From Botryllus schlosseri (lineage: Eukaryota), in NCBI GenBank assembly GCA_051294905.1, contig CM119371.1, positions 20,896,001-20,960,000 of the forward strand: a stretch of 64,000 bases of DNA, written 5' to 3'. Below, piece by piece: positions 3,332 to 50,580 of this stretch. The notes beneath the pieces were generated by a model, which saw only the letters and a list, made by a program, of their open reading frames with translations, did no database searches and had not been told where the DNA came from. The translations under genes and the position numbers were made by a program. The first letter of the stretch is position 1. Each line of letters begins with the position of its first letter.

Positions 3332-4876
3332 CAGTGGTTCCCAACCTGGGAGGAATTCCCCCCTTGGGGGGAATTTTGCAATTTTTAGGGAGGAATTCGA
3401 GTTTAGAATTGTAACGGATTTCCAAAATTGTTCATGTTCGAACTGTTATGTAGTTAACCAGTTATATCCGTACGTATGCTTCTTATGGCTGTTTCATTTG
3501 CTGAAAGTATGTTCAAATGCTATTTGAAATTTCTTTTTCACATACAAATCCCTCCACCCCTTTTTTTAACTAGTTCAGATGTGCTGCAGTTCGCAAGACA
3601 ATTTTGCAAGCCAGCGACGGCCTCTCAATCTCATATATCCCAAGCAAGTAGGCCTAAATGTTGCGCCGAATCATTCACAACAAGCCCTCTAGTGAAAGTA
3701 TTTATCTTATATTTTCAGGTCAACATTTTCAGACAGTGACTAAATATTCCAACGTCATCGATTCAAGTCAAAGAGATCGCAAGCCTTGCTTTATTTTTAG
3801 TGAACTGCTACCCGATCGAAAAAAGACATGGTAAACTTGGTGCAATGTTGCCGAAACGTAACGGGTGTCCTAAATTTCAATGAGCTCCAGCAGGGAATTT
3901 GATCACGCGTATGTTATATATCAGGGCTGTAACCCAGTCACGAGGCTCCGAGTCACTAGTCAATCTCACTTTCATAGTTTTGACTCGAGTCAAGTCGGGT
4001 CATTCTCAATTCACCATTGAGTCAAGTCTTAGTCCAAGTCACCGAGCAGGCGCTCGAGTCTGAGTCATGGTATTATGACTCGAGTACGAGTCCAAGCCAC
4101 ACTCAAGTCAACACTGTTTGGTGATATTGAATGATTTGGATTTATGATATACTAATTTTCCTCATTTTGAGCAGTTTCTTGTCGCATTGTCAAGTACCAG
4201 GATCAATAGACGAAATTCCAATAGGGTGGTCACTTTACTGTTCTTCGAAATTACAATGAAATGTCGGTCTTGGCCGTTTTATAGTCTTGAGTCATATGGC
4301 TTGATTCGAGTCATGCACAATGACTTGAGTCCAAGTCGAGTCAATACACAGATTGTCTCGAGTCGAGTCGTTTCCGTATTTTGAGTAAAATGACTCGAGT
4401 CAAGTTGAGTTGTCAGAAATGGTGACTCGAGTCAACCTGGTCAACCCTGTTATATATGAAAGTCTATTGGCTAAATGCATACTATGCTATTGTTGGCTAA
4501 ATGCATACGCAAACTTGAGAATAAAATCGCGAGACCAGTAAATTCATGGATACTGATTCTTCACAGCAGTTATATTAGCGGTTGGTGCATGGTAAGCCGA
4601 AAACACAAATGAAAGTGTGGGGGTCTGTTGAGTCGAGCGTTCCAGAATTTGTGTGATTGGGGCCAAGACCATTGTTTTTGGAGGTCTACAAAGTGTTATT
4701 ACAGCACTGCTGGAAACAAACACTCGGTACCCGCCCGTCTTATTCTTTTAGTCAACAGGTGGCTGCGTGGTAAAAATAACCATTTTTAATCATCGGGCAG
4801 ATTTATCCTAAGGGGGGAATTTTAGCTAAAATTTCGGCCAAGGGAGGCACGAGATGAAAAAGGTTGGGAACCACTG
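3332..4876. mobile_element. hAT (Buster/Charlie-type) MITE nested in 3295-6101
   Basis: TIR CAGTGGTTCCCAACC / GGTTGGGAACCACTG. TSD CCCTAGGG at 3324-3331 and 4877-4884. Confidence 0.92.
3922..4449. mobile_element. hAT MITE of the GACTCGAGTC-rich family (third nesting level)
   Basis: Ends CAGGGCTGTAA / CAACCCTG. TSD TTATATAT at 3914-3921 and 4450-4457. Many GAGTC/GACTC subterminal motifs. Similar to 48327-48912 and 21621-23686. Confidence 0.9.
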
Positions 4877-9949: not shown

Positions 9950-10436
9950 ACTCGTACATATTCAACACCGCGCGAGATATGCCTATACTCGAAAGTACGA
10001 ATCACCGCCACGCCCATAAGAACGCATGGTGAATCAGTAGAGACCCTGTAAGAATAGACGACAGACGAATCACCGCCACAGCCTATACGCGAAAGTACGA
10101 CGTGCGAGAGATGCCTATATCCGAAAGGGCGATTCACGACCGCACCCATAAGAACACATAGAGAATCACCAGAGACCGCGTAAGAATACATGACAGGTGA
10201 ATCACCGCCGCAGCCTATAGCAAAAAAGGCGAGTCACGACCACGAGTTATCACGGCGAATCACCACCGCAGCCTATACCCGAAAGTACGAATCACGACCG
10301 CACCCATAAGAACACATGGCGCATCACCGCCGAGAGGGGGGTCTAAAGGTACGATATGCCACCACGAGTTTCCAGGCGAATCGCCACCGCGCCCATAAGA
10401 GCCAATAGCCGCTCACGACCGATCTACTATACTACT
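9950..10436. repeat. GC-richer subterminal repeat region ending in a Polinton-like ACTACT terminus
   Basis: Recurrent GAATCACCGCC, GCCTATA..CGAAAGTACGA and CCCATAAGAAC motifs. Ends gatctactatactact at 10421-10436. Confidence 0.65.
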
Positions 10437-13330: not shown

Positions 13331-13544
13331 TGATATCCATTTGTTTTAAAACAGGAAATCGTAGGTCATTGAAATGCATGAATTCTCCGTTTCGAGAACT
13401 CAGTGAAATTTTGTTTGGTTTTATGTAGCGTGGATTGCATACTACAAATCTAACACTCAACCACAATGTCCCACCATGTAGTGTCCTAAGTCCAAACGTA
13501 TAACAGTACTTTTAAAATACATTTTAATAATATATTCATATTAA

Positions 13545-13582
13545 AACCCGAAGCTTTTCGAGCTGACACTTCTCAAGGGCAA
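13545..13582 (-). ncRNA. Minimal type I hammerhead ribozyme motif in the PLE 3' end (U3-A8 core variant)
   Basis: Minus strand reads gccc UUGAGAA g-ugucagcu-c GAAA agcu UC gggu: stem I, core, 1-bp stem II, and a palindromic AGCU loop on stem III. Confidence 0.7.
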
Positions 13583-13692
13583 TCGTCAGCAAATGGAGAA
13601 TTTCAAAAACATGCATCTAGCTACATTGCATACAACCAATTATGACGTCATAGAAACAAACAACATGAAATACAGGCAAACCGCGAGCGCAG

Positions 13693-14541
13693 CTAGTGAA
13701 CAATTTTTAGATTCACTACAAATTCCTTCTGCTGACACAAGCGCGGTCGGTGGATTTTAATATAAGTCGATTCCAGTGCAGACAGATGGAAATTAGTGCG
13801 GCCTCTACCTAATATCGAAAATCTTTCATCGCGATAGTTTTTAGCGCAAGTTACATTCTCAGCCAAATGCTTGCCGATGGCAGAGTTCATAGCCATGGCC
13901 TGATTACGTTCTAGTATTCGGAGATCAGTTACGGCTGCGTCTTCGCGAGAGTCCAATATGCGTGATCTAATAACGCTAGGGACATGTTGTTTGATGCGTT
14001 CCTGCAAGCGCTGAGTTGTTCTTCCCACGTACCGACAATCACAGTGGCACTTGAAATCATAGACTATATTGCTTGGTTGAAAAGCAGGAAGAACATCTTT
14101 GCGCGTTGCAGGAAGCAATTGTTTGGTGGTAAACACAACATTAGTTTTTACGTTATCGTAACAGCGATTAACAGCAGAAATCAATTGTTTTTCAAACCGG
14201 GAAGAGATGGGGCCCAGCCACGGCAAATGTATATATACATTTTCCTCAGACCGTGTGTTCGTGTTTTGTGATTTGTTGGGATTGAAATTACTGAGTTTTC
14301 TGTCCACAGAACTTTTGATGATGTGTTCGGGGTAGCCGTTATCGATTAGAATTTTGCGGATATATTCTAGCTCCGCGTTTAATTTTACATCCGAACAAAT
14401 CATCAAGGCTCTGTGCACCAATGTGCCAATCAAATTTAGTTTACGGCGATTCGGGCTAAAAGAATTCCAGCGTATGTAATGCCCTGTAAACGTTGGCTTC
14501 CGGTAAACCGAAGTGACAAAGCTAACACCCCGTTTTTCCAC
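13693..14541 (-). CDS. Penelope-like RT-thumb plus GIY-YIG endonuclease (partial, 282 aa open frame)
   Basis: VYRKPT, HLPWLG, NIVYDFKCHCDCRYVGRTTQRLQERIKQH, SAIGKHL, LESTYIKIHRPRLCQQKE. Confidence 0.9.
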   Translation of the reverse strand: MEKRGVSFVTSVYRKPTFTGHYIRWNSFSPNRRKLNLIGTLVHRALMICSDVKLNAELEYIRKILIDNGYPEHIIKSSVDRKLSNFNPNKSQNTNTRSEENVYIHLPWLGPISSRFEKQLISAVNRCYDNVKTNVVFTTKQLLPATRKDVLPAFQPSNIVYDFKCHCDCRYVGRTTQRLQERIKQHVPSVIRSRILDSREDAAVTDLRILERNQAMAMNSAIGKHLAENVTCAKNYRDERFSILGRGRTNFHLSALESTYIKIHRPRLCQQKEFVVNLKIVH

Positions 14542-16236
14542 CAGAACGTCTAAGAATGGTAACGAGTTAGCACGCTCTTTTTCAAATGTGAATTTTAAGA
14601 CGAGTGTAGAGAATTCAAGTTAACGAAGAAATCATCGAACTCTTAAACTTTGATAGCTTCCGGACCAGTGGTAGAAACAGTTGGTAGACGTGTCATTTGC
14701 TACGTGGTTTTCATATAAAACTGGACCTATAAATGAGGAATAGGTGGGCTGGATTTCAACATCAAGACACAAGACTTATAGTTCAGCATGTTGACGCACG
14801 ATAAGTTTACAGCACGACAGGTACTCCACACGATTTAAAGAATCTGTAAACTACGTCAATACTAGTCAGCACTCAAGATAACCGGACCACGAACAGACAT
14901 ATCGATTTATCCTACCAACACAGGCCAATTATGTTTTACCTCTTGTCCTTTTATATTATTATCTGTGTCTTATAGTGTGTGTGTCACTTGTATACATGTT
15001 TTTTAGGCAAGTGGATCTCAACCGTTTCCAGTTCGCGCTTCACATTTAATGCAACTTTCATTGTTAAACCCGAAATGAGAAAAAACGAAAAACGTACAGA
15101 GATGGAGCATAACAGCCAAGAATGGCGTAGTACGTGGTGCAGCGATCTCTAATTTCTATTTTTTATTGTTTACATAAATGTGGCATGTCAGCTAGTCAGG
15201 GCGTTGTACTTAGTAACGACAAATCATTGTACCCCTGCGTCTGCTTTTGCGCTTGAAACAATGTAGTATGCTCGCATCAATTGAGTTCTTCGAAAATCCA
15301 GTCCTCCATAGACCTACTAAACCAATTTATGCCTCGTATTGGACACCTGGGGTACAAAATTACGGACGTATCACGCCGTTTTCAACTACACTTAATATTG
15401 CCCCCAATCAGGCTTAATGTTCAGAACTACGGGACGATACACTCACAACGCACTCCGAATGGTCGGGCAGAAGGGCAGAAGATAGTTTCTACTCGGAAAA
15501 TATCCTGAAACTGTGGTAGAGGTACACTTTATTGGAACAACCATCACATGTAAGATTGTCATTATTCATTTAAAAAAATTATTTCTATAACATTGGTATC
15601 ATAACAATTATAAGATTTTTAGCTCCCCATAGCAACTAAAAGTGAGCCGTCTATTACTTATTGAATAGAGAACTGAAACAATATGAAATGCTTCGCTGTA
15701 AGCTTATGTAGACTAACACTGGGTTAGCGTATCGGAGGTTGAGGACCACTGGTGCAGGCCAAAGCAAAATACCGGAGTAAGATAGTGTTATACCGCTTCC
15801 TCCATTTTATCAAGGGAATATATTTGATGCTACTGTCTTAAATTGATGCTATCCTTGAAGAGATCTGGAATATATACATTTACCGCTTTTCAGGATAAAG
15901 ACTTAACGCAGACTCTTACAGATATCTAGTTTTCTACGGTCATAATATGGACGGTCAATTATGAAAAGCCATTTTTGTATACATTCCATAGTGCTCAGAT
16001 AAGTTTACATATGCATTGATTAGCCACATTACAATAGAGATACCGATAACCATTCAAGTTCAAGATAGGTTGTGCATCTGCCTACTGTCCATAGCGTATT
16101 TTCTGTACGAAGGCGACTGTTTTGAGTGTTAATACAAATCTTGTAACAATGACCGCGCTGATGATATTATTATAATACGTAATGGTGTATTATCCTTAAA
16201 CTGAGACACGTCCCCTTCTATGAGGTCATTCTAGTC

Positions 16237-21620: not shown

Positions 21621-23686
21621 CAGGGTTGTAATGACTCGAGTCACGATTTTTTTGTGACTCGACTTGACTCGAGTCATTTTCTTGAAATGGGAAAATGACT
21701 CGACTCGAGTCAATATTTGGATTGACTCGACTTGTACTCGAGTCATTACGCATGACTCGGCTCAAGTCATTGACTCGGCTTATTTTATGTGACTTGAAGG
21801 TGAAGAAAGTTGCGAATCACAATGGTTAGATCAACGCATGTGACGAATTCTGTCGACATCGCTATTTGTCATCACTGCTTTCGTTGCACTCGTCTGATAT
21901 CAGATATGCGCCGCCGTAAAAACAAAAGACAATGGTACATAGTAGCAAAGAGCAATGCATTGTACAAAATCATCCAGTGATGAAGAGGTAATAGATCCTC
22001 CGCCATCAAAGTACTCAAGACATTTCAATTATACAAGCAAACAATCGAAGCAAAGTCCAATTAGAGCCAAAGAAATGACTCAGATGGTCAAGTAGCCTAC
22101 TTGGAAGAGACTGATAAGCTCATGTGTAGATATGAAGGCGATGATTCTTTGCATTTTTGGCCGACTAGAATGGATGAGTATCTAATGCTCTTCAGTGTGG
22201 TTCAAAATTGCTTTTCAATTGCTGCATCTAATGCACCAGAGGAACGTGTATCCAGTGGATGTGGATTATTCTAAGGCCATGCCGCCTCAACATATATGAG
22301 AATCTCCTTTTCACTTTAGTATTTTTCAAGTGTAACTCATTGATTTGATCTGCTGTCTGTGAAAACACACAATACCCTCCGTCCGTTTGACGTTTTGTTA
22401 GGTATGTGCATTGTGCACGTGATAATAATGAATGGCTAATGTTGTGTGATATTTGTACAATGGGGCCGATCAAAAATACCTTCTTTTTATTCTACTGGGT
22501 GGCTACTTGATAAAATTGCTACGTTGCATAAAAAGAACACTGAATCTGGCCTAATTTGAAAAAGTGGAATCAATGAAATGAGAGGAGAAAATATTGGATT
22601 TGAAAATACATGGAGTATTTTTAGTGAGAAATGATTTCATATAATATAATTACATAATAGCAGTAAGTCGACTATTTTTTCATATCCAAAATATTCCACT
22701 CTAATAACTCCGCTTCTTCTAGTTGGAATTGAGCCAAATTTTCTATGAATCATATTTTTACACAATCTAACAATATCATGAGGTAGCCGGTATATTTCGA
22801 AAGTCTCTATTTGTAATTAATCCAAAATATCTTCTCTTAGCATTGCTTTCTACTGGTTGGAATTAAGCCAAATTTAAGTTCTTTTAGATAATCTAACAAT
22901 TTTAAGAAGTAGCCTCTTTTTTGAGATTCTGACCTCATTTTTGAGAATTTATTTGGTAAATGTAGGGCAAATTAGACTAAGACAACAATAAATCAGCACT
23001 AAAGTAACGCTCCGGCGACTATTTCGGCAGCTGAGCAGGAAAGTTGACCTTTTTTCTGGTCAACCACCTGATATGATGTGAAAGCAAAACTGTACCTCTA
23101 CATAAGCGTTTATCTGTTCATTCTTTACCAGCTTGTATCTAGCTAGACGTGAATTCGTAGGTCTTCTATCAGATAGTACGTAGACGTGAATTCGTTAATT
23201 CTCTATAAGCTATTTGTGAGCGGTCGTCGATGTGCTCGTAATAAAAACTGAATGCTTTTATTTGTGATATATCAGACTGACAAGACATATATTCGATTTA
23301 AAGTTCTAAGATTAGTAACGTTATCGTATTAGCGGCCTGTTACGTCTATCTGTAGCATTGGTATATGATGCCAGGAACTGTCTGTTATCTGCCTAACTAA
23401 ATAAACTTGTGCCAAGACTATGATGGGGACAAAATAAGCATGTTTGGCAAGCAAGGAATTCGATATCACCCAAGCAGGATTGAAAACATAAGTTGAACAT
23501 GACTTCAATACTGTGACTTGGACTCGACTCGAGTCATAACACTATGACTCGGACTTGACCCAACGGTGACTTGGACTCGGACTCGAGTCGGTGATGAATT
23601 GAAAATGACTCGACTCGACTCGAGTCAAAACCACAAAAGTCAGATTGACTCGTGACTCGGAACCATGTGACTTGGTTACAACCCTG
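21621..23686. mobile_element. hAT deletion derivative (GACTCGAGTC family) retaining the transposase C-terminus
   Basis: TIR CAGGGTTGTAA / TTACAACCCTG. TSD CCACATAC at 21613-21620 and 23687-23694. Confidence 0.92.
22083..22340 (+). pseudogene. hAT transposase C-terminal dimerisation domain remnant
   Basis: DSLHFWPTRMDEYLMLFSVVQNCFSIAASNAPEERVSSGCG, then after a frameshift LRPCRLNIYENLLFTLVFFKCN. Matches the hATC pattern FW...YP.L..A...SIPASSA..ERVFS...LVFLKCN. Confidence 0.8.
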
Positions 23687-23875
23687 CCACATACATATTA
23701 CCGTAAAATCGACATTTTGAATTTCAAATACCTCGTAATAGCGATCAAACACCACATGTAACACTGTTATATAGTCTCTATATATGTAGGCGTGTTTCTG
23801 TTGTTAAATGATTAGTTGGTCCAACTATTTTGCTTGATTTGGCTGTGGTACCATAGGTCACCCACCCTATCATTA

Positions 23876-25396
23876 TTGTAATTGAATTGAAAACAGTCCA
23901 CTCGAATATGGTATTGATTCAAAAAATATGTATCATTATATACCCTGATACAAGCCCTATAATTCACATTTAAAATTATTACGGGTTTGTTAGTCTGGAA
24001 GGTGATATAGAAAAATGTATATGTCGATCCAAATTTACTTTGCACCCCCTAAAACGTTAATCATTTGTACAGACCCCATAAGTCACGCATATCGATCTTT
24101 GTTGCTAGTGAGGAAATATTCTGTCAGCATGCCATTGTAGACAAAGTCGCGTTCTGTAATCATGGGATTATCACAGAGAATTTTTAAAGTATTTTCGGTC
24201 CCAGTGTCTCATCGGTACCACATCTTCCCTACTGTTGAAGTAAATCGTGTCCTTTACTCTGGTGCAGTTCTTTTCGAGCGGTGTGCGTGATGCACCCTTG
24301 GGTCAGTAACAATTGGCAAGAGCAGCCTACAAATTTTATCGCAGCAGTGATGCAGCGAGTAATACGACGAACATGTCAGCAGTACGCGCATAGAAATGAT
24401 AGTCTAGTCCAGTGGTTCTTAACCTGTACTATCTCACGGAACACTTTCGCTAGTCTGCAAGCCTTCGCGAAACTCCAAATTTTCGCTTAGTTGTAGGAAC
24501 GAAAATATTCCACAATGCCCATCTAATACGTTACTATGAATTGGTGGTGCGCAAAAGGAAATGTGCATCAACAGAGTGTCAAAAATCAAACCCATTAAAA
24601 TACGATTTCAACACAAAAAGAAAACATAATGATTTGCAAATTTGCTGTTGCCGTCCAGATACCAATCAGAAATAAAAGGCTTCATCTTCGATTACGATAT
24701 CGTGTTGTTCGGTCGAAACGCAACCACGATATCAGTTGCTTGAGTGCAAACGACAGTATTAATATTGGAGATCTAATTGGCATTTCAGAAAGGCTGGGCT
24801 TAGATTTCGAATCCCAACCTTCCCTGCGTACGCCACTGCACATGACTTACTATCAAGACAGTCCCATACTCATATTGCAACTTCTGATAGGGCCTAAATG
24901 TCGGCAGCCAATTATGACCAAATCATAAATCATTTGTATGGGTTAATTGTGGGTCATGAGCTCTAGAGAACTCCTGATGTTGGCTCAGCGAACCCCCTAG
25001 TGCTCCATTGATTACCGGTGAAAAACCACTGCAATAAGTAGTGAAGATGCTTAACCGATGAGACACTTCGACTGAAAATACTTGAAAATTTCCCTATGAT
25101 AATCTCATGATTGCACTCCGCAAATTTTTCTACAGTTGCATTCTGGCAGAATCGTTCTTCACATGCAAATAACTCAGAACTGCGCGTGTTATAGGGTCAG
25201 TGACAGATCTTTTGTGTCTTAGAGGGTGTAAGATAAATATCTATCGATATCTAATTTTCTCTGTGTAACCTTGAGCACGAACAAACCTGCAATTGTTTTT
25301 AATGTGAAGGTTAGGGCTTATATCAGGTTATATGATGTCGCACTTTCTTTTATTCAATACCATCCTTGAGTGGACTTTTTTCAATTTAATTACAAT
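23876..25396. mobile_element. Old foldback/MITE with ~360-bp diverged inverted arms and an internal Charlie-type insertion (24410-25031)
   Basis: ~23876-24232 is the reverse complement of ~25037-25396 (e.g. agtccactc/gagtggact, gtgtctcatcgg/ccgatgagacac). Confidence 0.75.
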
Positions 25397-27126: not shown

Positions 27127-27678
27127 GTTATTTGAATAGTATATTCATATTGAAATTAACCCGAATATTCTCGACTGAAACTCCTCAGGGGTAATCGTCA
27201 GCAACTAGCAGAGAATACAAAAGAACAGCGTATATCAACAATCGTAACACAAAATATGACGTCACCAGCACGAAATGTCGAATACGAGAGCGTTCAATGT
27301 ACTATTTTTAGGTGATACACGAACTCTTTTTGTTGACACAGCCTTGGCTGGTGTATTTTGATGAAAGTCGACTCCAATGCACACAAATGAAAGTGTGAGC
27401 GACCCTTTCCGAGTACGCGAAATCTGTCGTCTCGATGATTTTTCGCACAGGCGGGATTATCCAACAAGTGTTTGCCAATTGCAGAATTTATGGCCTTTGA
27501 TTGTTCCGCATCAATCTTGAGCGAATGAGCTAAGGGTGAGCTTTGCAGCGAGTGTGTTCCAATGAATCTAAGGACATGCTGATTTATGCGTTCCTGCAAG
27601 CGCTTTGACGTTCTTCCCACGTAGCCGCAATCACAGTGACACTTAAATTCGTAAACTACATTGCTTTGCTGAAGTGCT
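27127..27678 (-). mobile_element. Second, shorter 5'-truncated Penelope-like retroelement (GIY-YIG domain only)
   Basis: SNVVYEFKCHCDCGYVGRTSKRLQERINQH...SAIGKHL...LESTFIKIHQPRLCQQKEFVYHLKIVH. Paralogous to 13693-14541. Confidence 0.9.
27156..27195 (-). ncRNA. Minimal hammerhead ribozyme motif in the second PLE (C3-G8 core; GAAA reads GAGA)
   Basis: Minus strand reads auuaccc CUGAGGA g-uuucagu-c GAGA auau UC ggguuaau. Confidence 0.65.
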
Positions 27679-28466
27679 ATTCAATTGTATATTGAAGTTC
27701 TGTACCTCCAAGAAGCTGATCAAGGAGTTATTTGGAAGTCAGAATCTCGATTTACCGGCAATATGGAAGTACGCTCAAATGTGTAAGTATGAGCCCAAAT
27801 CGAAAAGTCATTTTATGATAACATTTCAGTTAATGAGTGTTTAAAATCTGTTGCTCGAAAGTATCATCGTTCCCCAACCGGTGGTTTCACGGGCACACGG
27901 ACCGATGAGACACGCTAAAAAAACTTGAATATTCCAAATTTTCCTGTTGCGTACAACAATCGCAGGCTACAGCAATCCAAAGAAGAATATTTGGTTGCCA
28001 CCTTTACCAAAATAGAATTATTATTAAAAGGTTTTTGAAAAGGTGGATCCACCTGTAGACTTATATATCTGTGGTAGGTAGATCAAAGAGTTGAGCCAGC
28101 AAAAGATCTCCTGTTCTCAGCTGGACATTTGAGATAAGAGAACATTTTGCAATTTTTCATTCATCGGTTCCACAACTCCCCTATAGGAGATGGAATTGGC
28201 ATTTCGAAAAGAAGAGGGTACGATTTTAAACACAACCACCTCTTCCCTGCGTCCGGCGCTTCATAGTGCACATGTCATGAAACCACGGCTACTTATTGCA
28301 TGCATCGAATTATGACGTGTCCTCATCAATGTATATTTTTCATCTTCTTTGGAATCACTGAGAATGATTCGTGGAACCCCTGGTGTTTCGTGGAACACCG
28401 GTTAAGTAGAGATTACTAACCTACCGATAGACACTCCCGTCCTAACGCTTGGGCAAGCAGCATCTC

Positions 28467-30195
28467 TGGACCGCGAAAAGACTGCGGAGAAAGCTTGAAC
28501 GTCAGTGGAGAGCTTCTAAACTAGTCGTCCATAGACAGATGTACCAAGAACAATGCACTCGGGTGATCAGAATGATAGTCAAAGCAAAATCTAGCTACTA
28601 CAACAACTTGATAATGGAATGCAAGGATAACAAGAAGAAACTCTTCAGCGTAACGAAAAACCTCCTCGCAGAATCGAGCTCGGTCAAACTACCATCGAAT
28701 CATCCATCGTCACTAAGTCTGGCAAATTCATTTAACACGGTTTTCCGTGACAAGGTCGGCTCTATCAGACAATTTTTGCTTGCTCAGCAAGGCAACCGAC
28801 ACCGATCAGAAGGACAAACAAACGAGGAAAATTTCAACGGTGCCGCTCTGGATAATCTATCGCCTACTAATGTTGATGAGATTAAAGAGCTCATATCTGG
28901 TACGCGTCCAAAGACATGCGATCTTGATCCTATACCAACTTGGATTCTGATGGAATGTTTCTCGGACTTGGCGATTCTGGTCGTCGAAATCATAAATCGG
29001 TCGCTGTTAGACGGCGTGGTACCGCAATGCTTTAAGCGAGCTGTGGTGACCCCACTCCTGAAGAAGAACAGTCTTGACTCCGATCTGATGCAAAACTATC
29101 GACCGATATCGCAGCTTCCGCATCTCTCAAAACTTCTGGAAAAGGTTGTCGCCAAACGCATTGTGGACCATGTGACCGAGTACGATCTTCACGATATGAA
29201 TCAGTCGGCATATCGTGCCGGACACTCGACTGAAACAGCAACGTTACGTGTCAACAATGACATTGCTTCTGCCCTCGACAACGGAAACATGGTCGCTCTA
29301 ATCATGCTGGATCTCTCCGCTGCCTTCGATGTAATCGACCACGTTCTATTGGTGGAACGGCTCCATCATGTATTCGGAATCTCCGGCGTGGCATTAGAAT
29401 GGGTAAAATCATATTTGAAAGATAGAATGCAGTGCGTATCTGTGGATGGTGTCCGTTCGTCAGAGATTCAAATCGAATCAGGAGTACCACAGGGTTCTGT
29501 TCTCGGCCCATTGCTCTACCTCATGTACACGAAGCCAGTCGGAGATATTTGCCGTCGCCATGGTTTCTTCCACCATTGCTACGCGGATGATACACAGGTT
29601 TACGGTCTTATGAGAAATAGCAATGACTGGGAGAGCGTGTCATCCAAGTTACAGCGATGTCTTATCGATATTGAGCTCTGGATGACACAAAATCGTCTCA
29701 AGTTGAACAAAGAGAAAACTGAACTCAAAATTTTTACGCCAACCAGACGCCCCATCGACCACAATCAATTCACCATCAGATTCGGACCAGACACCATCCA
29801 AGCCAAGACCTGTGTACGTAACCTAGGTATTCACTTTGACGGCATGCTCTCAATGGAAAAACATATCGACTATACATCAAAGATCTGTTTCATGTATATC
29901 CACAAGATCAGTCGAATCAGGAACTACCTATCTGAGGATGCATGCAAAGCCATAATACTGTCGCTGGTGATATCACGGCTTGACTATGGAAATGCTCTGC
30001 TTTACGGGGTAAACCAAAATTGCATCGACAGGCTACAAAAGATCCAAAACATCGCTGCTCGTTTGGTAACTCGGTCAAGGAAGCGTGATCACGTAACGCC
30101 GATTCTTAGATCCCTTCATTGGTTACCCGTGAAATTTAGGTCTGAATACAAGCTTCTTCTGTACGTCTTCAAATGCATGGAGGGAAGTGCACCAA
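28467..30195 (+). CDS. LINE ORF2 reverse transcriptase, 5' part (partial)
   Basis: NYRPISQLPHLSKLLEKVV, QSAYRAGHSTETA, LDLSAAFD, GVPQGSVLGP, YADD, LKLNKEKTE, LHWLPV. No internal stops. Confidence 0.93.
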
Positions 30196-30904
30196 TAGGG
30201 TGGAGTGAAAAATGCAAATTTTTGAATTTCAAAAAAGGGTCTTGATATGTGGTGCCAAATAGTAAACAAATAAATTCTATCATAATTTTGGGTTCGTACA
30301 CCCTCTAGTGGTCGTGCAATTTCACCGAACGAGCCAAAAACAGCTAATTTCATCATATCTTGATCATCACTTACACTAGAAAGTCAGTTTTGGGCTTAAA
30401 AGATGCAGAAGCAACATGTTTCTATCTCACTTCCATAGAACTTACTCTTAAAAATGAACAGAAAAAAAGTTACAAGCAAATTTCTGATTTTATAGGTAAA
30501 ATTGAGCACGGAAGCAGTGGGTAGGATGTCAAAAGCGTGTAGTGATTGATCTTACGACTGAGCAACATACCCTATCAATTAGAACTACTTTTCAAAACTT
30601 TCTCAAACAAATGAACCCCCTCCAAGCATAAATAGGGCTCGGGCATCGAATAGAGACTGCTAAAACTGTATTTAAAACAGCGTCCATTGGTAGTGCAGCG
30701 TCACGATATCGGTAAGTCTATAACAACGGCCCTCATGAGATTTTTTTCCAAAATGCTGTCGTAGGGTGTGTATCATATTTGTCACAAAGCTGAATGAAAG
30801 CACAAAAATTGAAAATACACATTCAAAACACAAACATCAATTCTATACTGGAAACAGAAATTTTTTGTAGCAGTATCATATGAGTATCAGTGTGCACAAA
30901 CATT

Positions 30905-31530
30905 AAAATCATGTTTAGTATTGAAAGATTTCATCTGCTTTCAAGACTTCAGTTTTTGTCTGATGAGGCTATCTCTACGTTTAAATCCTGAAACATGGGT
31001 AGATGCTTCAGTAACCACGTTTTAATGTCTTTCCACTGCCTGGTTGTGGCAAGGATGACTGATCCTTAATGGTGATGATCTTAGGTTTTCCACCTCGACA
31101 TCTGACAAGGTTTGGTGTGGTTGTTCTGCGCATAGCTGTAATCTTGTTAACTGTAAATCTTCGGTCGTATCCCTCCTCGTCACCAAAGCATTCCCAGCAA
31201 AATATTTTCTGGATGTTCAAAATGACCATTTCTTCGTAGCAAAGATGGTGCAAGGGAGTGAATTCGGGTATCAGTCAGCTTTGTGACACGGGAAACTATA
31301 TTGTGGAAATTTTTAGCACCATCTACAATGGAATTGTGCATTTTTATTTCAAACCATGACGGAAAATAGACCTCCATGCAGAATTGAGCAAGACAATTCA
31401 GATTTCTCGATGGACGACTCTGTCCCACATAGTACTTTGAAATTTGAGATGCGAGAGTCAACCATATTGAATGAACGACGGGCCCAGCCTCCAAATATTG
31501 CAGATCTGGTTCCAATTGACGACTTTGAAG
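30905..31530 (-). pseudogene. hATm-like transposase C-terminal remnant (left arm)
   Basis: LEAGPVVHSIWLTLAS...VYFPSWFEIK...DGAKN...RNGHFEHPENILLGML, then HPCHNQAVERH*NVVTEAS...RRDSLIRQKLKS*KQMKSFNTKHDF. Confidence 0.75.
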
Positions 31531-31577
31531 GAGGATATGTAAATGAAACCAAACCCTAAAGCAGCAACATTGACACC

Positions 31578-31895
31578 AGCATCAGATTCTTCCAAATTCC
31601 AGTTATCAACATCAAGGCTTAATCTTTCCACCAAATTGTCAACTTAAACCTCAAAAATATTGAACAGCCGCCTGCATCGCAATCAAGACCTTGTCTGATC
31701 ACGAGTTGGGAAACCTATGATCATCACCATTAAGGCTCAGTTATCCTTGCCACAACCAGGCAGTGGAAAGACATGTGACAGTGCTGACATAAGCATCTGC
31801 TCAATGTTTCAGGATTTAAACGTAGAGATAGCCTCATCAGACAAAAACTGAAGTCTTGAAAGCAGATGAAATCTTTCAATACTAAACATGACTTT
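31578..31895 (+). pseudogene. hATm-like transposase C-terminal remnant (right arm)
   Basis: SIRFFQIPVINIKA*SFHQIVNLNLKNIEQPP, then YPCHNQAVERHV...RRDSLIRQKLKS*KQMKSFNTKHDF. Confidence 0.75.
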
Positions 31896-32616
31896 ATTGT
31901 TTGTGCACACTGATACTCATGTGATACTGCTACAAAAATTTTCTGTTTCCAGTATAGAATTGATGTTTGTGTTTTGAATGTGCATTTTCAATTTTTGCGC
32001 TTTCTTTCAGGAGCTTTGTGACAAATATGATACAAACCCTACGACAGCATTTTGGTAAGAAATCTCATGAGGGCCGTTGTTATAAACTTACCGATATCGT
32101 GATGCCGCACTACCAATAGACGCTGTTTTAAATACAGTTTTAGCAGTCTCTATTCGATACCCGAGCCCTATTTATGCTTGGAGGCGGTTTCATTTGTTTG
32201 AGAAAGTTTTGAAAGTAGTTCTAATTGATAGGGTATATTGCTCATTCACAAGATCAATCACTACACGCTTTTGACATCCTACCCACTGCTTCAGTGCTTA
32301 ATTTTACCTATAAAATCAGAAATTTGCTTATAACTTTTTTTCTGTTCATTTTTAAGAGTAAGTTCTATGGAAGTGAGATAGAAACATGTTGCTTCTGCAT
32401 CTTTTAAGCCCAAAACTGACTTTCTAGTGTAAGTGATGATTAAGATATGGCGAAATTAGCTGTTTTTGGCTCGTTCGGTGAAATTGCACGACCACTAGAG
32501 GGTGTACGAACCCAAAATTATGATAGAATTTATTTGTTTACTATTTGGCACCACATATCAAGACCCTTTTTTGAAATTCAAAAATTTTCATTTTTCACTC
32601 CACCCTAGTGCACCAA

Positions 32617-33830: not shown

Positions 33831-35339
33831 GACTGTGGGGTCGGAGTCAGACTTTGGTTTAATTTTCTCTGGGTGGAGTTGGAGATGGGGTCAGAAAATG
33901 CTTTTAACAACTTTTGTAGTCGGAGTTAGTGATGCGCAAACACTTACCGGCCAGTGTTGGGATGACTCGAGTCATGACTTGACTCGAGTCAGACTCGAGT
34001 CACCATTTTTGTATGACTTGACTTGACTCGAGTCACTTTGCTAAAATGACTTGACTTGACTTGACTCGGCGTATCAGAAATGTGGATTGACTCGTGACTC
34101 GGAGCAAAATTCACGAGTCAATTTCAAGTCATCAAGTAATCGGTGTCGATAAAAATCACTGTATTTTGCACATGGTCGGATTGTTCACGAAACGCTGGTG
34201 TAACCCGTGATAGCGACCAATCATTCAATGATCGTGCGTTTTACTGAGCCTATACATTGTTCTGTCACAAATAAATTGACCACAAACGAAGTGATCGAAG
34301 CTTACAGCTTACGTTATCGTAGAATAGTATAGTAAAGTAATGCAAAATGTATATTTCTGTTCTCTGTTCTTACCTTATCCAAACGTCTTGTTTTATTGAA
34401 ATTGAATTCGAATATAGTTTATTTAGTCCACCGCCATTGGCGCTGGCTCGAATTCGATCATGTCAATTTGTAAATGGGTAATGTATTGCATCTTATCAAT
34501 TCGTTTCTTTATTCTCTATTTTGGCTGGTAACTATTAACTGATGCTATGCAATTACTTTCGTTCTTTAACAGTTCTACGTATATGTGAGTGATGCAGCGC
34601 TTTCATGCGTGTATATTTAACTCTATATTCGCTCATCGGTTCAGAATCAATGACCACTCAATCTGTATTTCAGACAGACAGTAAAATGCAATGACGTAAT
34701 CATGCCTCAAACTTCGAAAAGGCTACTTGACTTGAATTGTGACTTGACTCGTGACTTGACTTGACTTGACTCGACTTGACTCGAGTCACCTCCAAAAATG
34801 GAGTGACTTGACTTGACTCGAGTCACCTTCGAAAATCGAATGACTTGACTTGACTCGAGTCAAAATGTGCAATGACTCGAAATGACTCGTGACTCGAAGG
34901 TAGTGACTTGATCCCAACACTGTTACCGGCTAGAGTCAAAGTTGGAATTTTTGTAAATGCTCTGACTCCGACTACAACTCGAACCGCGTTAATATTGCAG
35001 AAACTGTTCTTGAATGATGCTAAAAAGTGCCATTTCAGCTACTATCAACTATCAAATTAGTATTGCAGGGTTTCCACAAGCTACGAGCTACATTCGAACA
35101 ATATTTCCTGAATTGAAAAAATGGGTAACAAAATCAACTAAAATGTAATAAATGTATAATTTTCTGAGTATATGTACAGGAAAGGTTGAGTCGGAGTTGG
35201 AGCTCTGCGGAGAAAATATCACGAGCCAGAGCTGGAGTCGGCGTGTTTTCACTTTTAGTCGGAGTCGGTACATTAGAAATATCTGGAGTCGAAGTCGGAT
35301 TTGGAGTCGGTGGTAAAATAAACACACTCCACAGCCCTG
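33831..35339. mobile_element. hAT MITE with GGAGTC(G) repeats; host of 33952-34922
   Basis: Ends GACTGTGG (eroded) / CCACAGCCCTG. Flanks CTCGTAAG / ATCGTAAG. Confidence 0.7.
33952..34922. mobile_element. hAT MITE with (GACTT)n repeats
   Basis: TIR CAGTGTTGGGAT / ATCCCAACACTG. TSD TTACCGGC at 33944-33951 and 34923-34930. Relatives at 44399-46914 and ~50070-50512. Confidence 0.92.
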
Positions 35340-46448: not shown

Positions 46449-47755
46449 ATATAAGCTATATCCGAATTCAATTTCAATGAAACAAGATGTTTGGCCAAGG
46501 TAAGAACAGAGAACAGAAATGGACATTTTGCTATTAAATTACTTTACTATACTAGTTTACAACAACGTAAGCTGTGAGCTTCGATCACTGCGTTTGTGTT
46601 CTCTATTTATTTGTGAGAAAACAATGGAGAATCGGTAAAACATACGATCATTGAAGGATTGCTCGCTCTCACAGATTACGACAGCGTTTCGCGAACGATC
46701 CCAACTTATGGAAGATACAATGATTTTTATCGACACCGATTACTTGATGACTTCAAATTGACTCGTGAATGCTGCTCCGCGTCACGAGCCAATCCACATT
46801 TCCGAAACAAGTCAAGTCATTTTAGCAAAGTGACTCGAGTCAAGTCAAGTCATAAGAAAAGGGGGACGCGAATCTGACTCAAGTCAAGTCATGACTCGAG
46901 CCATCCTAACACTGGTATTTGTCTACCGCAAACATTACACTCGCCTTGCTATACACAATCCCTCGAATTCGACTGTTATCCAGATATTTTGATTTTTTAG
47001 TGTGAACATGAATTAAGGTGAATCTTTGCTCCGTGTACGTGGTTTAGGTCGTACTCTACAGGAAAACTCACCCGTACATATGCACCCACGTGTTTCGATA
47101 AAAATGAAGGACTGGCGAGAAATGTTCCCTTTAATTTTTGACGAGTCTTCGCGCACTCACCAAGTCACAGCGCAAACCTTTGGACAACAGTGCATAACGA
47201 CTGAAAGAAAAGGTCACCACTTCGGATTTTTTGTGCGCAATTTATATTTGCTGTGCACAGAGACCGTGTCCGCGCTGCGCATTTGCGCACGTGCGCGGCT
47301 TATAGGGAACATTGCTGCCGAGTTGTAAGGATAAGTGGGCGTATGCCTTGCGTTCGCTTCTACTCTTTTTTAGTGAACATTGCTGATTCTACAAGCAAGA
47401 GCTCTATAATCGGAACAAACCGGCTATCGCCATATGAAGCATTTGGCAGGACGTCTTAAAGCACACCAAATTTCCAAAGTGCTCATGGATAGTGCAGCTA
47501 CATAAAATTCTTGTGCAGAGTGAATCTCCTGTCCAGGCCCATTGTTGAAGATGCCGCAATGCTGAAGTAAAAGCTGACTTCTTAGGCATCACTAAATTTA
47601 CCAACTGCAACAATCAAATTTCATAATAATTCCTAAAAATAAATATCCCTCGTCGCTTTACCATCAATTTCGACGAGGACTCTCTTAAACCTTTACGGTG
47701 TAAGCCAGACTGGAAAATGTATACTCAACGCCAGACGGTTGCTATATCTATATAT

Positions 47756-49170
47756 CAGGGGCGAACCCATCAAAGGTTCAGGTTCGTGTGTACGCGAAGG
47801 TTATGGCGTCACATTGCTTAATCCAACCCTACATGCCAGTGAAGTGATATATTCATGTTCATATATAGAATATATATACCTAGAGACGACTCAGGTCACA
47901 TGACTCCGCAATACTGAAGTACATGCAGATTTTTTAAACGTCACAAATTTATCAACCAAAGCAATCAAATGATATAATAATCCCATAAATTCAATATCTT
48001 CCGTCGCTTTGCCAATAATTTCGACTAGGAATTGAAACGGAATATAAGTTCACGTCTTAACGGCCGAGTCCAGACCGGAAAATGTTTTCGGCATTCGACT
48101 GTTGAACAGATTTATCCCGAGAGCCTGCTGGATTTTTACATTAGCCTAAGACCTATTTTTATATCAATTTCATTGATTGGTTGAATAATCATCATTCGCT
48201 GCCTACTTACATGTAAAGTATTTCATTCTTGATGTTATGTGATTGCGAGTCAAGCTCGCAACAAAGAGGAATTAAATATCCACAACCGCACGGCTGAAAA
48301 TTTCGAGCAAACGTTTGTAACACAGCCAGGATTGTAACCAAGTCACAAGTTACCGAGTCACAAGTCAATCTCACTTTTATAGTTTTGACTCGAGTCAAGT
48401 CGAGTCATTTTCAATTCACCACCGAGTCAAGTCCGAGTCCAAGTCAGCGAAAAGAGGGTCAAGTCCGAGTCACAGTATTATGACTCGAGTCGAGTCCAAG
48501 TCATCGTGTTTACTGCTCTGTTTCTTGTAAAAGTCATGTTAAAATCACACTTTTATAACTCTATTTGGTGGTATCCAATGGTTTGATGTTATAATATACG
48601 AATTTTCCTCACTTTCAGCAGTTTCTGGTCGCATTTTCAAGTACCAGTACCAACAGACGAAATTCCAATAGTGTCTTGGCTTTGAAATTACAATGAACTG
48701 TCGGTCTTGGACGTCTGAGTCTCGAGTCAATGACTTGGCTCGAGTCTTGCGCAATGACTCGAGTCCAAGTCGAGTCAATACACAGATTGACTCGAGCCGA
48801 TTCGAGTCATTTCAATATTTTGGAAAAATGACTCGACTCAAGTCGAGTCATCAGAAAATCGTGACTCGAGTCGGACTCGAGTCGAGTCATGACTCGAGTC
48901 ATTACAACCCTGAACACAGCAAGTAAATTTTTTGGAATTGGCTCGTTTAGTATTGATTTATTTATGCTGCCAGCGCCTCGCATACGGTGGTATGAAGTTT
49001 AAATGCAAAGAATTTAAACCATAGATGTAATAATGACGTGCTAAATTGTGATGCATAAAAAAGGTTCACATTGCAGAACCTACCAAGGTTCGTTTGTGAA
49101 CGTGAACCTCTCGATTTCTGAGGTTCACACACAGAACGTGAGTGTGAACATCACGTTCACACCATCCCTA
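47756..49170. mobile_element. hAT MITE with GTGAAC/GTTCAC motifs (inverted copy of 60091-61094); host of 48327-48912
   Basis: Right end GTTCACACCATCCCTA. The internal sequence is the reverse complement of 60091-61094. Left end eroded. Confidence 0.75.
48327..48912. mobile_element. hAT MITE, GACTCGAGTC family
   Basis: Ends CAGGATTGTAA / TTACAACCCTG. TSD AACACAGC at 48319-48326 and 48913-48920. Confidence 0.92.
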
Positions 49171-50580
49171 ATTTATATCCAGCGGAGTGAAAATTCGGGT
49201 TCTATACTGTCTACACATATTACCTCAAAACAAGTTGTATATTAGTCATCAGCTATATAGGGCTGGGCAAAATCGAGTACCAGGGTAATTCGATTCTTAA
49301 TCGTGTATTTGATTCGAATCATTGGAAGTAGAAATAATTTTAAGACTTGAATGATTGTACCCAGTAGCAACATTACAATCGGAGGGACTCGTTTGTTATG
49401 TTACAATAGCCATATTCAATCAAGATTGATTCTAACGCCTGCTTGACTTTTTGCATTAGATAGCGATGCGTATTTTATATCAATTTCAGAAATAGATTGT
49501 TTGAGCAAGCACATCTCGCTGACTATAGTACGCTACAATTGAAGCTGTAACAGCATGGGGTAGTTATCGGTATCTGCTAAAAATGCTTATTGGTCACGCT
49601 CTAGTTATAATGCTTGATTGTTTCATAAAACTGGTCCCAATAGAAAGCTAATTTCGACCAATTATATTAAATAATATCGCCTGGGTCACCAAGTTATAGG
49701 TCTACCAATCACGTTGCTTTTTTCCTGTGCAGCACTTCCCTGTGTATGTAGGCTAAGCGTGGCGACTGGTGTTGCACCTATATCCGTATAGGTTAGTAAG
49801 CTAAAGTGAAATGTTCGTTAGATAACCGCGTGCATTCATCGCACCGCGACATACGACTCGTGACTTTTGATGCAATTTCGACGCAAATCTTTGTTCAGTG
49901 GTAGTATCAATTCCATAATCCCTTTTCGCGCCTGTAGCTACTATAATCTTCGTGTTAAGTATTCGTGAATATCTGAAATGTACGCTTCGGTGCCTTTTCT
50001 TTACATATCAAACATTTGCAATAATGATTTATACGAGGCACGGCTGAATTTGATTCTTGAGGTTAAGGTATTAGAATGATCAGAGTCATGAGTTGAATTG
50101 AGTCGGACTCAAGTATACCCCTTTCTTTAGGAATTGACTCGATTCGCTTGGCGAAGATTACTGGACTTGACGTGAAATGTGGATTGACTCGAAGCAAAAT
50201 TTTCGAGTCATCTTCTAATCATCAAGTAATCGGTGTCGACTATAAATCGCTGAACCTTTTCTATGTTCGAAATGTTCTCGATACATTTTTGCGACTTGTG
50301 TGAGCTGCCTGTCATTTAATGATTGTGCATTTTACCGAGCTTCCACTTCAATAACTTACTTCAAATTGACTCGATTTGTGACTTGACTGGTGACATGTCT
50401 AGACTTAACTCGGGTCAACTTCTAAATTCGACTGACATGACATGACTGGAGTCAAAATGAAATGACTCGTGATGACTTGTAACAAGAAGGTAGTGACTTG
50501 TTCCCAGCACTGCTGTTAATCATGTCATTTTATCATTGTAATGACGTTTGATCATAATGTTTTATTGTAATGATATTAAG

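Follow-up and report, generated by a model that had tools for sequence, protein, structure and literature searches.

A type I hammerhead ribozyme with a candidate pseudoknot and a U3-A8 core in a young Penelope-like element of Botryllus schlosseri

Of the hammerhead ribozymes of Penelope elements, those tested barely cut and lack tertiary contacts. Two hammerhead motifs lie in a 64,000-nucleotide stretch of the Botryllus schlosseri genome (GCA_051294905.1, contig CM119371.1, positions 20,896,001 to 20,960,000, forward strand; the window in what follows). The initial annotation placed a minimal hammerhead in a Penelope-like element at 13545..13582, took a paralog at 27156-27195 for comparison, and read the joint difference of the two copies at positions 3 and 8 (U-A against C-G), together with their differing palindromic loops, as selection on ribozyme function. 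We found both motifs at these places on the minus strand of the window sequence, as described, with the motif of the first (copy A) reaching 13590, 8 bases further 5'. A descriptor similar to the relaxed one used for the genome gave only two matches in the window, copy A and the paralog (copy B). The parts of copy A are as follows; their position names (G12 to A15.1, U16.1, C17) are those that we take to apply under the established hammerhead numbering.

13515..14642, minus strand: copy A element, a 5'-truncated, solitary and young Penelope-like element of family A, 98% identical over 1,141 nt to a tandem unit in locus L021
About 33 nt beyond the predicted cut, minus strand: 3' end of copy A, its 3' junction read in the sequence
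13693..14619, minus strand: 308-codon open frame with the C-terminal part of the reverse transcriptase (RT) and a GIY-YIG endonuclease, 99% identical to 859-codon frames elsewhere (Pfam GIY-YIG match weak, 21.2 bits for a cut-off of 22.6)
13585..13590, minus strand: 5' strand of the pseudoknot helix, partner 13567-13562 (covariation)
13584-13581, minus strand: 4-nt linker between the pseudoknot strand and helix I
13577..13580, minus strand: helix I, 5' strand (two-sided change in three of four pairs)
13570..13576, minus strand: catalytic core, positions 3-9, with U3 at 13576 and A8 at 13571 (sequence)
13560..13569, minus strand: helix II, one base pair, G10.1 at 13569 with C11.1 at 13560 (aligned representatives)
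Within 13560..13569, minus strand: loop II, 8 nt, containing the 3' pseudoknot strand 13567-13562
13550..13559, minus strand: G12 to A15.1, palindromic tetraloop, U16.1 and C17 (sequence; GAAA 13559-13556, loop 13555-13552, U16.1-C17 13551-13550)
Between 13550 and 13549, minus strand: predicted cut
13556-13551, minus strand: 6-nt palindrome, potential pairing between two molecules (predicted self-duplex -4.3 kcal/mol)
13546..13549, minus strand: helix I, 3' strand (covariation)
13537..13539, minus strand: first ATG beyond the cut, which opens an 848-aa ORF in tandem units

The hammerhead core of copy A is complete, with U3-A8 and all other core bases, and the description of the motif as a Penelope-type minimal hammerhead is borne out by core, pseudo-LTR position and palindromic helix III loop alike. 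Copy A is a hammerhead ribozyme of type I, located in the pseudo-LTR of a young element of the Penelope-like kind, and its RNA is probably self-cutting.

Copy B is of a different family (DNA identity 68%). Each copy sits downstream of a remnant of a GIY-YIG endonuclease frame.

27132..27722, minus strand: copy B element, family B, decayed and 5'-truncated, with an endonuclease remnant at 27294-27680 and a pseudo-LTR
27159..27202, minus strand: copy B hammerhead, C3-G8 (position 3, C, at 27188; position 8, G, at 27183), of the same knotted build; its four private substitutions include one core change (A14 to G) and two knot changes

As a term of comparison copy B is a real C3-G8 hammerhead of another family but an unrepresentative one, departing at 27184, 27179, 27174 and 27170 from 44-45 of 46 family B rows (from overlapping loci, so that some places are counted twice). 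Its GAGA is private to that copy and thus a decay of GAAA (A14 to G), and its core fails at A14. With the paralog decayed in core and knot, an argument for selection needs more than the two copies in the window; selection on the structure does emerge, but from families across the genome. Lying 13.6 kb apart with different palindromes, and one of them decayed, the two copies are also unlikely to be partners of each other, and copy A, a truncated solitary insertion, probably has no partner.

The remainder of the window contains further repeats.

28446-30245, plus strand: 599-codon frame of a non-LTR-type reverse transcriptase, unrelated to the Penelope copies (Pfam RVT_1, 112 bits)
30193-32610: 2.4-kb element with inverted arms of ~920 nt (84-97% complementary) and a 576-nt centre, starting inside the 3' end of the preceding frame
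2147-2790: 41-nt tandem array
9981-10420: short-unit array
3915-4422, 21633-21777, 23507-23693, 33951-34922 and 46451-50432: dispersed repeat family built on a short palindrome
24174-24236, minus strand: 64-nt fragment, 87.5% like the family B ORF

A search of the 495-Mb genome by minimal descriptor, as the initial annotation had proposed, gave 10,675 places for a relaxed pattern (the core, a loop of 6-9 nt closed by G-C, then GAAA, four bases and UH) and 274 for the reversed pattern, a 39-fold enrichment. Aligned genomic copies, the other check proposed, have the core in their families, and positions 3 and 8 covary between families. We label the families A, A' and B-H for this analysis. Family B is the most abundant, with 4,011 exact-context matches. 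In family A, the 45-nt motif is identical in all 32 rows, from 30 loci, that scored best and are hence the youngest copies.

The family A tandem unit is 2,700 nt long, many genomic copies are 97-99% identical in protein, and some carry 859-codon frames. Within the tandem unit, 10 nt lie between the predicted cut and the first ATG, which begins a frame of 848 codons, and 143 nt separate the ORF stop from the cut. The 848-aa translation contains an RT with DKG and, as its C-terminal part, a GIY-YIG domain with CCHH, without a zinc-finger linker (Pfam RT and GIY-YIG matches both just under cut-off). These are features of the Penelope/Poseidon clade as described in passages of PMC8557442, and judged by this comparison of ORF features the element fits that clade. 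Copies of the family A type occur in the genome both as 2,700-nt tandems and as inverted pairs. Across families A, A', B, C, D, E and F the hammerhead lies 105-205 nt past the ORF stop (an ORF end being readable in 10 of 16 representatives), always between stop and start codon in the ORF-bearing families examined, and the cut precedes the conserved family ATG by ~3-24 nt.

Beyond the cut, the 3' ends of copies cluster at 28-37 or 58-72 nt, two classes ~35 nt apart with few rows between them, and six family B rows stop 0-3 nt beyond it. Passages on the anole Poseidon element (PMC11167929) describe two internal start sites of reverse transcription and a tail, which these two classes of 3' end resemble. 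An optional tail of 30-40 nt is, like tandem and inverted insertions, a trait of Penelope-like elements with which the copies agree. The position of the 3' ends suggests that insertion templates are uncut at the 3' ribozyme.

The strongest covariation lies in a helix that the initial annotation had missed. Helix II consists of G10.1-C11.1 alone, with no extra base after A9, and six loop II bases are complementary to six bases ending four bases 5' of helix I. Across 18 representatives (this genome's families and two metagenome relatives, hand-picked as the least decayed copies, a choice that raises the paired fraction) 93.5% of the cells in this flank-to-loop II helix, or knot, are paired and all six pairs show two-sided change; slid registers of the same representatives gave 24-45% paired for the whole structure. 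When five rows with a longer loop III were dropped and the family E copy exchanged, 99% of the 195 cells in the 13 remaining tetraloop rows were paired, and covariation extended to helix I and the palindrome. For the four base pairs of helix I, 98% of cells are paired in the 13 representatives and three of the four pairs change on both sides. Strand swapping among 13 distinct helices (L170 left out, one out-of-register row kept) gave a mean of 53.7 paired, for an observed 71 of 78, and none of 20,000 permutations was as high, a control that, like the slid registers, ignores the relatedness of rows.

The catalytic positions U4, G5, A6, A9, A13 and A14 are invariant in all 18 representatives, position 17 is C or U in them, and the 4-nt linker between knot strand and helix I is fixed in nearly all families. 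Helix III is rudimentary, its loop being one of three palindromic tetraloops, 100% self-complementary in the 13 rows, or in family C a 5-nt near-palindrome; the predicted self-duplex is -4.3 kcal/mol in family A, -0.2 in B and -1.5 in C. The conserved anatomy thus comprises the core, helix I, a G-C helix II, a 6-bp flank-to-loop II helix and a 1-bp helix III with a self-complementary loop, placed just 5' of a start codon.

The knotted build recurs outside this genome, at ~59% protein identity in the metagenome loci L163, L164 and L201, which come from a single data set and of which some copies are decayed, and in L170, with 45% protein identity and a 5-bp helix of wholly different sequence. 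The search for knots in relatives covered 19 loci, many without ORF ends; a first metagenome scan and the viral contigs searched contained no relative. A core-like heptamer upstream was rejected as the true core, having no helix I or helix II partner, and families with C3·A8 (4 copies) or with U3·G8 and a broken helix I (7 copies) were left out of the alignment, as they share flanks and have no ORF end in the DNA fetched.

We then considered how the U3-A8 core arose. The proposed covariation of positions 3 and 8 holds at the level of families but was not one compensatory step, since an uncompensated U3·G8 subfamily was amplified in between. Counted by hand, the first 100 matches listed, of 318 in lineage A, comprise 54 U-A, 24 C-G, 19 U·G and three singletons. 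Among the matches listed, U·G and C-G number 18 vs 8 in the family A type, 1 vs 16 in the sister family A', and 2 vs 94 in the first 100 of 4,011 in family B, an excess of U·G in the family A type (Fisher p 4e-5 vs A', 2e-13 vs B) whose comparison with family B led us to reject post-insertion decay as the source of U3·G8 in lineage A. The U·G copies share older linked markers with C-G copies, not the U-A markers, and have a marker of their own (9-10 of 18 rows vs 0 of 9, p 0.012, some rows being duplicates). Median identity to the young family is 99.2% for young U-A copies, 96.6% for older U-A (16 rows), 91.6% for U·G (12 rows) and ~80% for A' C-G, and the youngest copies, the 99% identity class, are U-A. 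From linked markers and graded identity we infer the order C-G, U·G, U-A. The lineage A DNA tree (48 of 83 rows) is ladder-like and its shape agrees with this order, with three of 44 branches well supported, so that the order rests on the linked markers. A single U-A clade was rejected (p-AU 0.002; 15 peptides, 75 columns), and family C is the commonest among those listed of 1,558 A8 matches. On the evidence of these comparisons, U3-A8 has arisen at least twice in this genome, in family C separately from lineage A, and that of lineage A passed through the amplified U3·G8 subfamily. U·G is also the 3-8 state in L163, L164 and L201; this, with the amplification of the U3·G8 subfamily, shows that a Watson-Crick 3-8 pair is unnecessary for spread.

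Families B and E (L034, L087) allow a five-base pairing between core and loop II, which would compete with the flank (nested-fold hairpin 0.83 and 0.78) and could act as an on/off fold. We rejected U3-A8 as the relief of such a core-to-loop II misfold, since the C-G ancestor of lineage A has a hairpin of 0.00 and families B and E keep theirs, B being the most abundant of all.

Among 114 loci with Penelope-like ORFs, from metagenomes and genomes, a scan yielded 30 motif rows, of which 22 are C-G, five U-A and one each G-C, U·G and U·C; in 29 of these 30, helix II is of the longer, classic kind. Natural U3-A8 is described in passages of Perreault et al. 2011 (PMC3088659), and ~1,300 U3-A8 motifs in Schistosoma mansoni, as well as one U3·G8 example (Saccoglossus 1, Fig. 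S3), in those of Cervera & De la Peña 2014 (PMC4209133). U3-A8 is therefore common, and the core flagged in the window is already known and ordinary for Penelope hammerheads. We additionally identified Penelope-like ORFs, several with classic minimal hammerheads, at loci L242-L274 in genomes filed as bacterial or archaeal; these loci are most likely host DNA in bins.

Amplified repeats with broken ribozymes are also present, with C3·A8 in four of four copies fetched and U3·G8 plus a broken helix I in seven of seven, apparently as passengers. Like the amplified U·G stage, they show that a perfect core is unnecessary for spread, and in passages of PMC11167929 ribozyme mutants of the anole element still inserted in vitro. 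Repeats L276-L282 and L085, L093, L290 and L291 have damaged ribozymes and no ORF end in the fetched DNA, five of the seven L276-L282 repeats adjoin an inverted second motif, and the whole set may be non-autonomous derivatives.

Our preferred reading, which we hold to be likely, is that a Penelope/Poseidon-type retrotransposon carries in its pseudo-LTR a type I hammerhead, selected across families, in which the knot stands in for helix II and a dimer cuts after C17. By analogy with known families, the flank-to-loop II helix would form alongside helix I as a pseudoknot and do the work of helix II and of the usual contact between loop I and loop II. In a type II hammerhead, a 6-bp knot beside a helix II of 1 bp gives a knot-dependent rate of >1.2 per minute (passages of PMC3088659), and a pseudoknot with a 1-bp helix II has been seen in a crystal structure (passages of PMC11300833). 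With a helix III of one pair, a single motif should be nearly inactive; two motifs, in neighbouring units of a tandem transcript or in two RNAs, would pair through the palindrome to build helix III, and the dimer would cut after C17, perhaps with help from the element's protein. Dimer activity (passages of PMC4209133) and help from the element protein have been reported for other Penelope hammerheads. Units 2,700 nt long would result from such a cut, each starting with an uncapped 5'-OH end that lies 10 nt 5' of the AUG, and RNAs used for insertion would be uncut at the 3' ribozyme. A viral hammerhead cuts 7 nt before a start codon (passages of PMC13725137), an analogy by which the Penelope motif might have a role in translation. 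U3-A8 would be a tolerated variant of C3-G8, reached stepwise via U3·G8.

Three RNA runs gave 48, 452 and 198 reads (both strands; 3-6% of each run), a thin depth at which no pile-up of molecule ends appeared. Reads without the ribozyme core were rejected as an RNA event, as the genomic copy L161 has a matching internal deletion. At position 2603 of locus L021, 54 nt beyond the predicted cut, seven reads of run X22 run on as an A run, the sign either of a poly(A) site on RNA left uncut or of an A tract in the genome at a single locus.

That the motif is a chance resemblance in AT-rich repeat DNA might be suggested by Rfam, which gave no family match to the window motif at E up to 10 and no hammerhead match within the window. 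We regard this as vanishingly improbable: the 39-fold enrichment and the covariation in three helices already refute it, and the fixed place between stop and start codon in all ORF-bearing families examined speaks against it as well. A fold that is kept while cutting is weak or dispensable, the motif being a protein binding site or a translation signal and U·G and U-A a sign of relaxed demand on catalysis, has more in its favour. The U3·G8 subfamily amplified, no RNA ends pile up at low depth, other Penelope hammerheads have very low activity in vitro (passages of PMC4209133) and Naiad elements spread without canonical hammerheads (passages of PMC8557442). However, U·G resolved to U-A, the state of the youngest copies, none of the six catalytic positions varies among the 18 representatives, and these have C or U at position 17, as cleavage needs, so that we think this reading unlikely.

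The flank-to-loop II helix could instead be an off state, which replaces the catalytic fold and silences the ribozyme until a protein or partner RNA refolds it. Nested folding of copy A does form the knot helix (0.92) along with a hairpin in which GAAA and the cut site are buried, helix I being left open, and insertions need uncut RNA, as the 3' ends of copies and passages of PMC11167929 indicate. But the folding program is unable to form pseudoknots, and the burying hairpin is not kept in all families. The knot helix, moreover, leaves the core and helix I strand free, with a 4-nt linker fixed in nearly all families, and agrees with the active pseudoknot hammerhead model in its 7-nt loop; were there no knot, helix II would be a lone pair with no other support. 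We consider silencing by this helix improbable, and retain the dimer-cutting hammerhead, with its knot in place of helix II, as the preferred reading.

A broader proposal, which is tentative and which we rather doubt as a whole, is that one clade of Penelope-like elements has an undescribed build, in which the knot that gives microbial hammerheads their speed is combined with a dimer-only helix III, that among Penelope hammerheads this would be the first fast one, active in tandem transcripts only, that its cut would set an uncapped mRNA start 3-24 nt before the AUG, and that some ten thousand motifs of graded age would record the passage from C-G to U-A via an amplified U·G. A Penelope ribozyme with a built-in pseudoknot is a clean test of whether such ribozymes can be fast, with the pairing of two copies as the switch, and the graded families are a natural series of C-G, U·G and U-A forms built on one scaffold. 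The knotted form escapes published descriptors and Rfam, and elements scored as lacking a ribozyme may thus have one.

The feature first flagged in the window is therefore real and already known, and what may be new is its build. Short-helix III hammerheads that cleave as dimers and are linked to Penelope-like elements were reportedly described by Lünse, Weinberg and Breaker in 2017; they would share short helix III and Penelope link with this motif, for which dimer cleavage is likewise predicted, and may already include the knotted form. Unless they do, the combination of a knotted helix II of 1 bp and a dimer-type helix III is new, and unreported in Penelope elements: we found no report of a knotted Penelope hammerhead in the literature searched, a body outside which lie the 2017 work and the supplements of PMC8557442 and PMC11167929.

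Cervera & De la Peña (PMC4209133), in the passages concerned, describe minimal type I hammerheads in Penelope pseudo-LTRs and a palindromic dimer model, and the present motif shares with theirs the pseudo-LTR place, a short helix I, a palindromic helix III that would need a dimer, and the U3-A8 variant. In their motifs helix II runs to 3 or more pairs, as in all representatives of their Fig. S3, and usually to 5-8, A9 is followed by an extra base, the centre of helix III is mostly of 2 nt and, in those passages, no tertiary contact was found, whereas in the present motif a single-pair helix II goes with a 6-bp knot and the extra base is absent. Such a form would escape their descriptor, which asks for 'gaaannuh' and for 3 or more pairs in helix II. 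A 2017 review, in the part concerned, likewise has Penelope hammerheads as usually without tertiary contacts. Similarly, tandem units, a ribozyme at the junction of pseudo-LTR and ORF, two classes of 3' end past the ribozyme and no reads ending at the cut are shared with the anole Poseidon element (Frangieh et al. 2024, PMC11167929), in the passages of which the cut lies 26 nt inside the ORF and a knot is unmentioned; the family A cut lies upstream of the AUG.

The closest likenesses of the knot lie outside Penelope elements. Perreault et al. 2011 (PMC3088659) describe, in the passages concerned, knots in all three hammerhead types, a 1-bp helix II with a 6-bp knot as here, and natural U3-A8; their tested 1-bp case is of type II, comes from a metagenome and is not linked to retrotransposons in those passages. 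With the RAGATH-1 pseudoknot hammerhead (RF03152; passages of PMC11300833) the motif shares type I topology, a lone G10.1-C11.1, a loop II of 7 nt in the Rfam model and a 6-bp pseudoknot with sequence 5' of helix I. In RAGATH-1 an A-rich strand joins on an additional helix IV, whose loop serves as the knot's partner, and a long helix III, by those passages, lets it work as a monomer, whereas the present motif has no helix IV seen by eye, a 4-nt linker and a helix III of one pair. The RF03152 model gave a best score of 20 bits (gathering threshold 56.3), in family D only, and none for the window motif. Without helix IV and a long helix III the knotted motif is thus not a member of RAGATH-1, but it would work in the same way.
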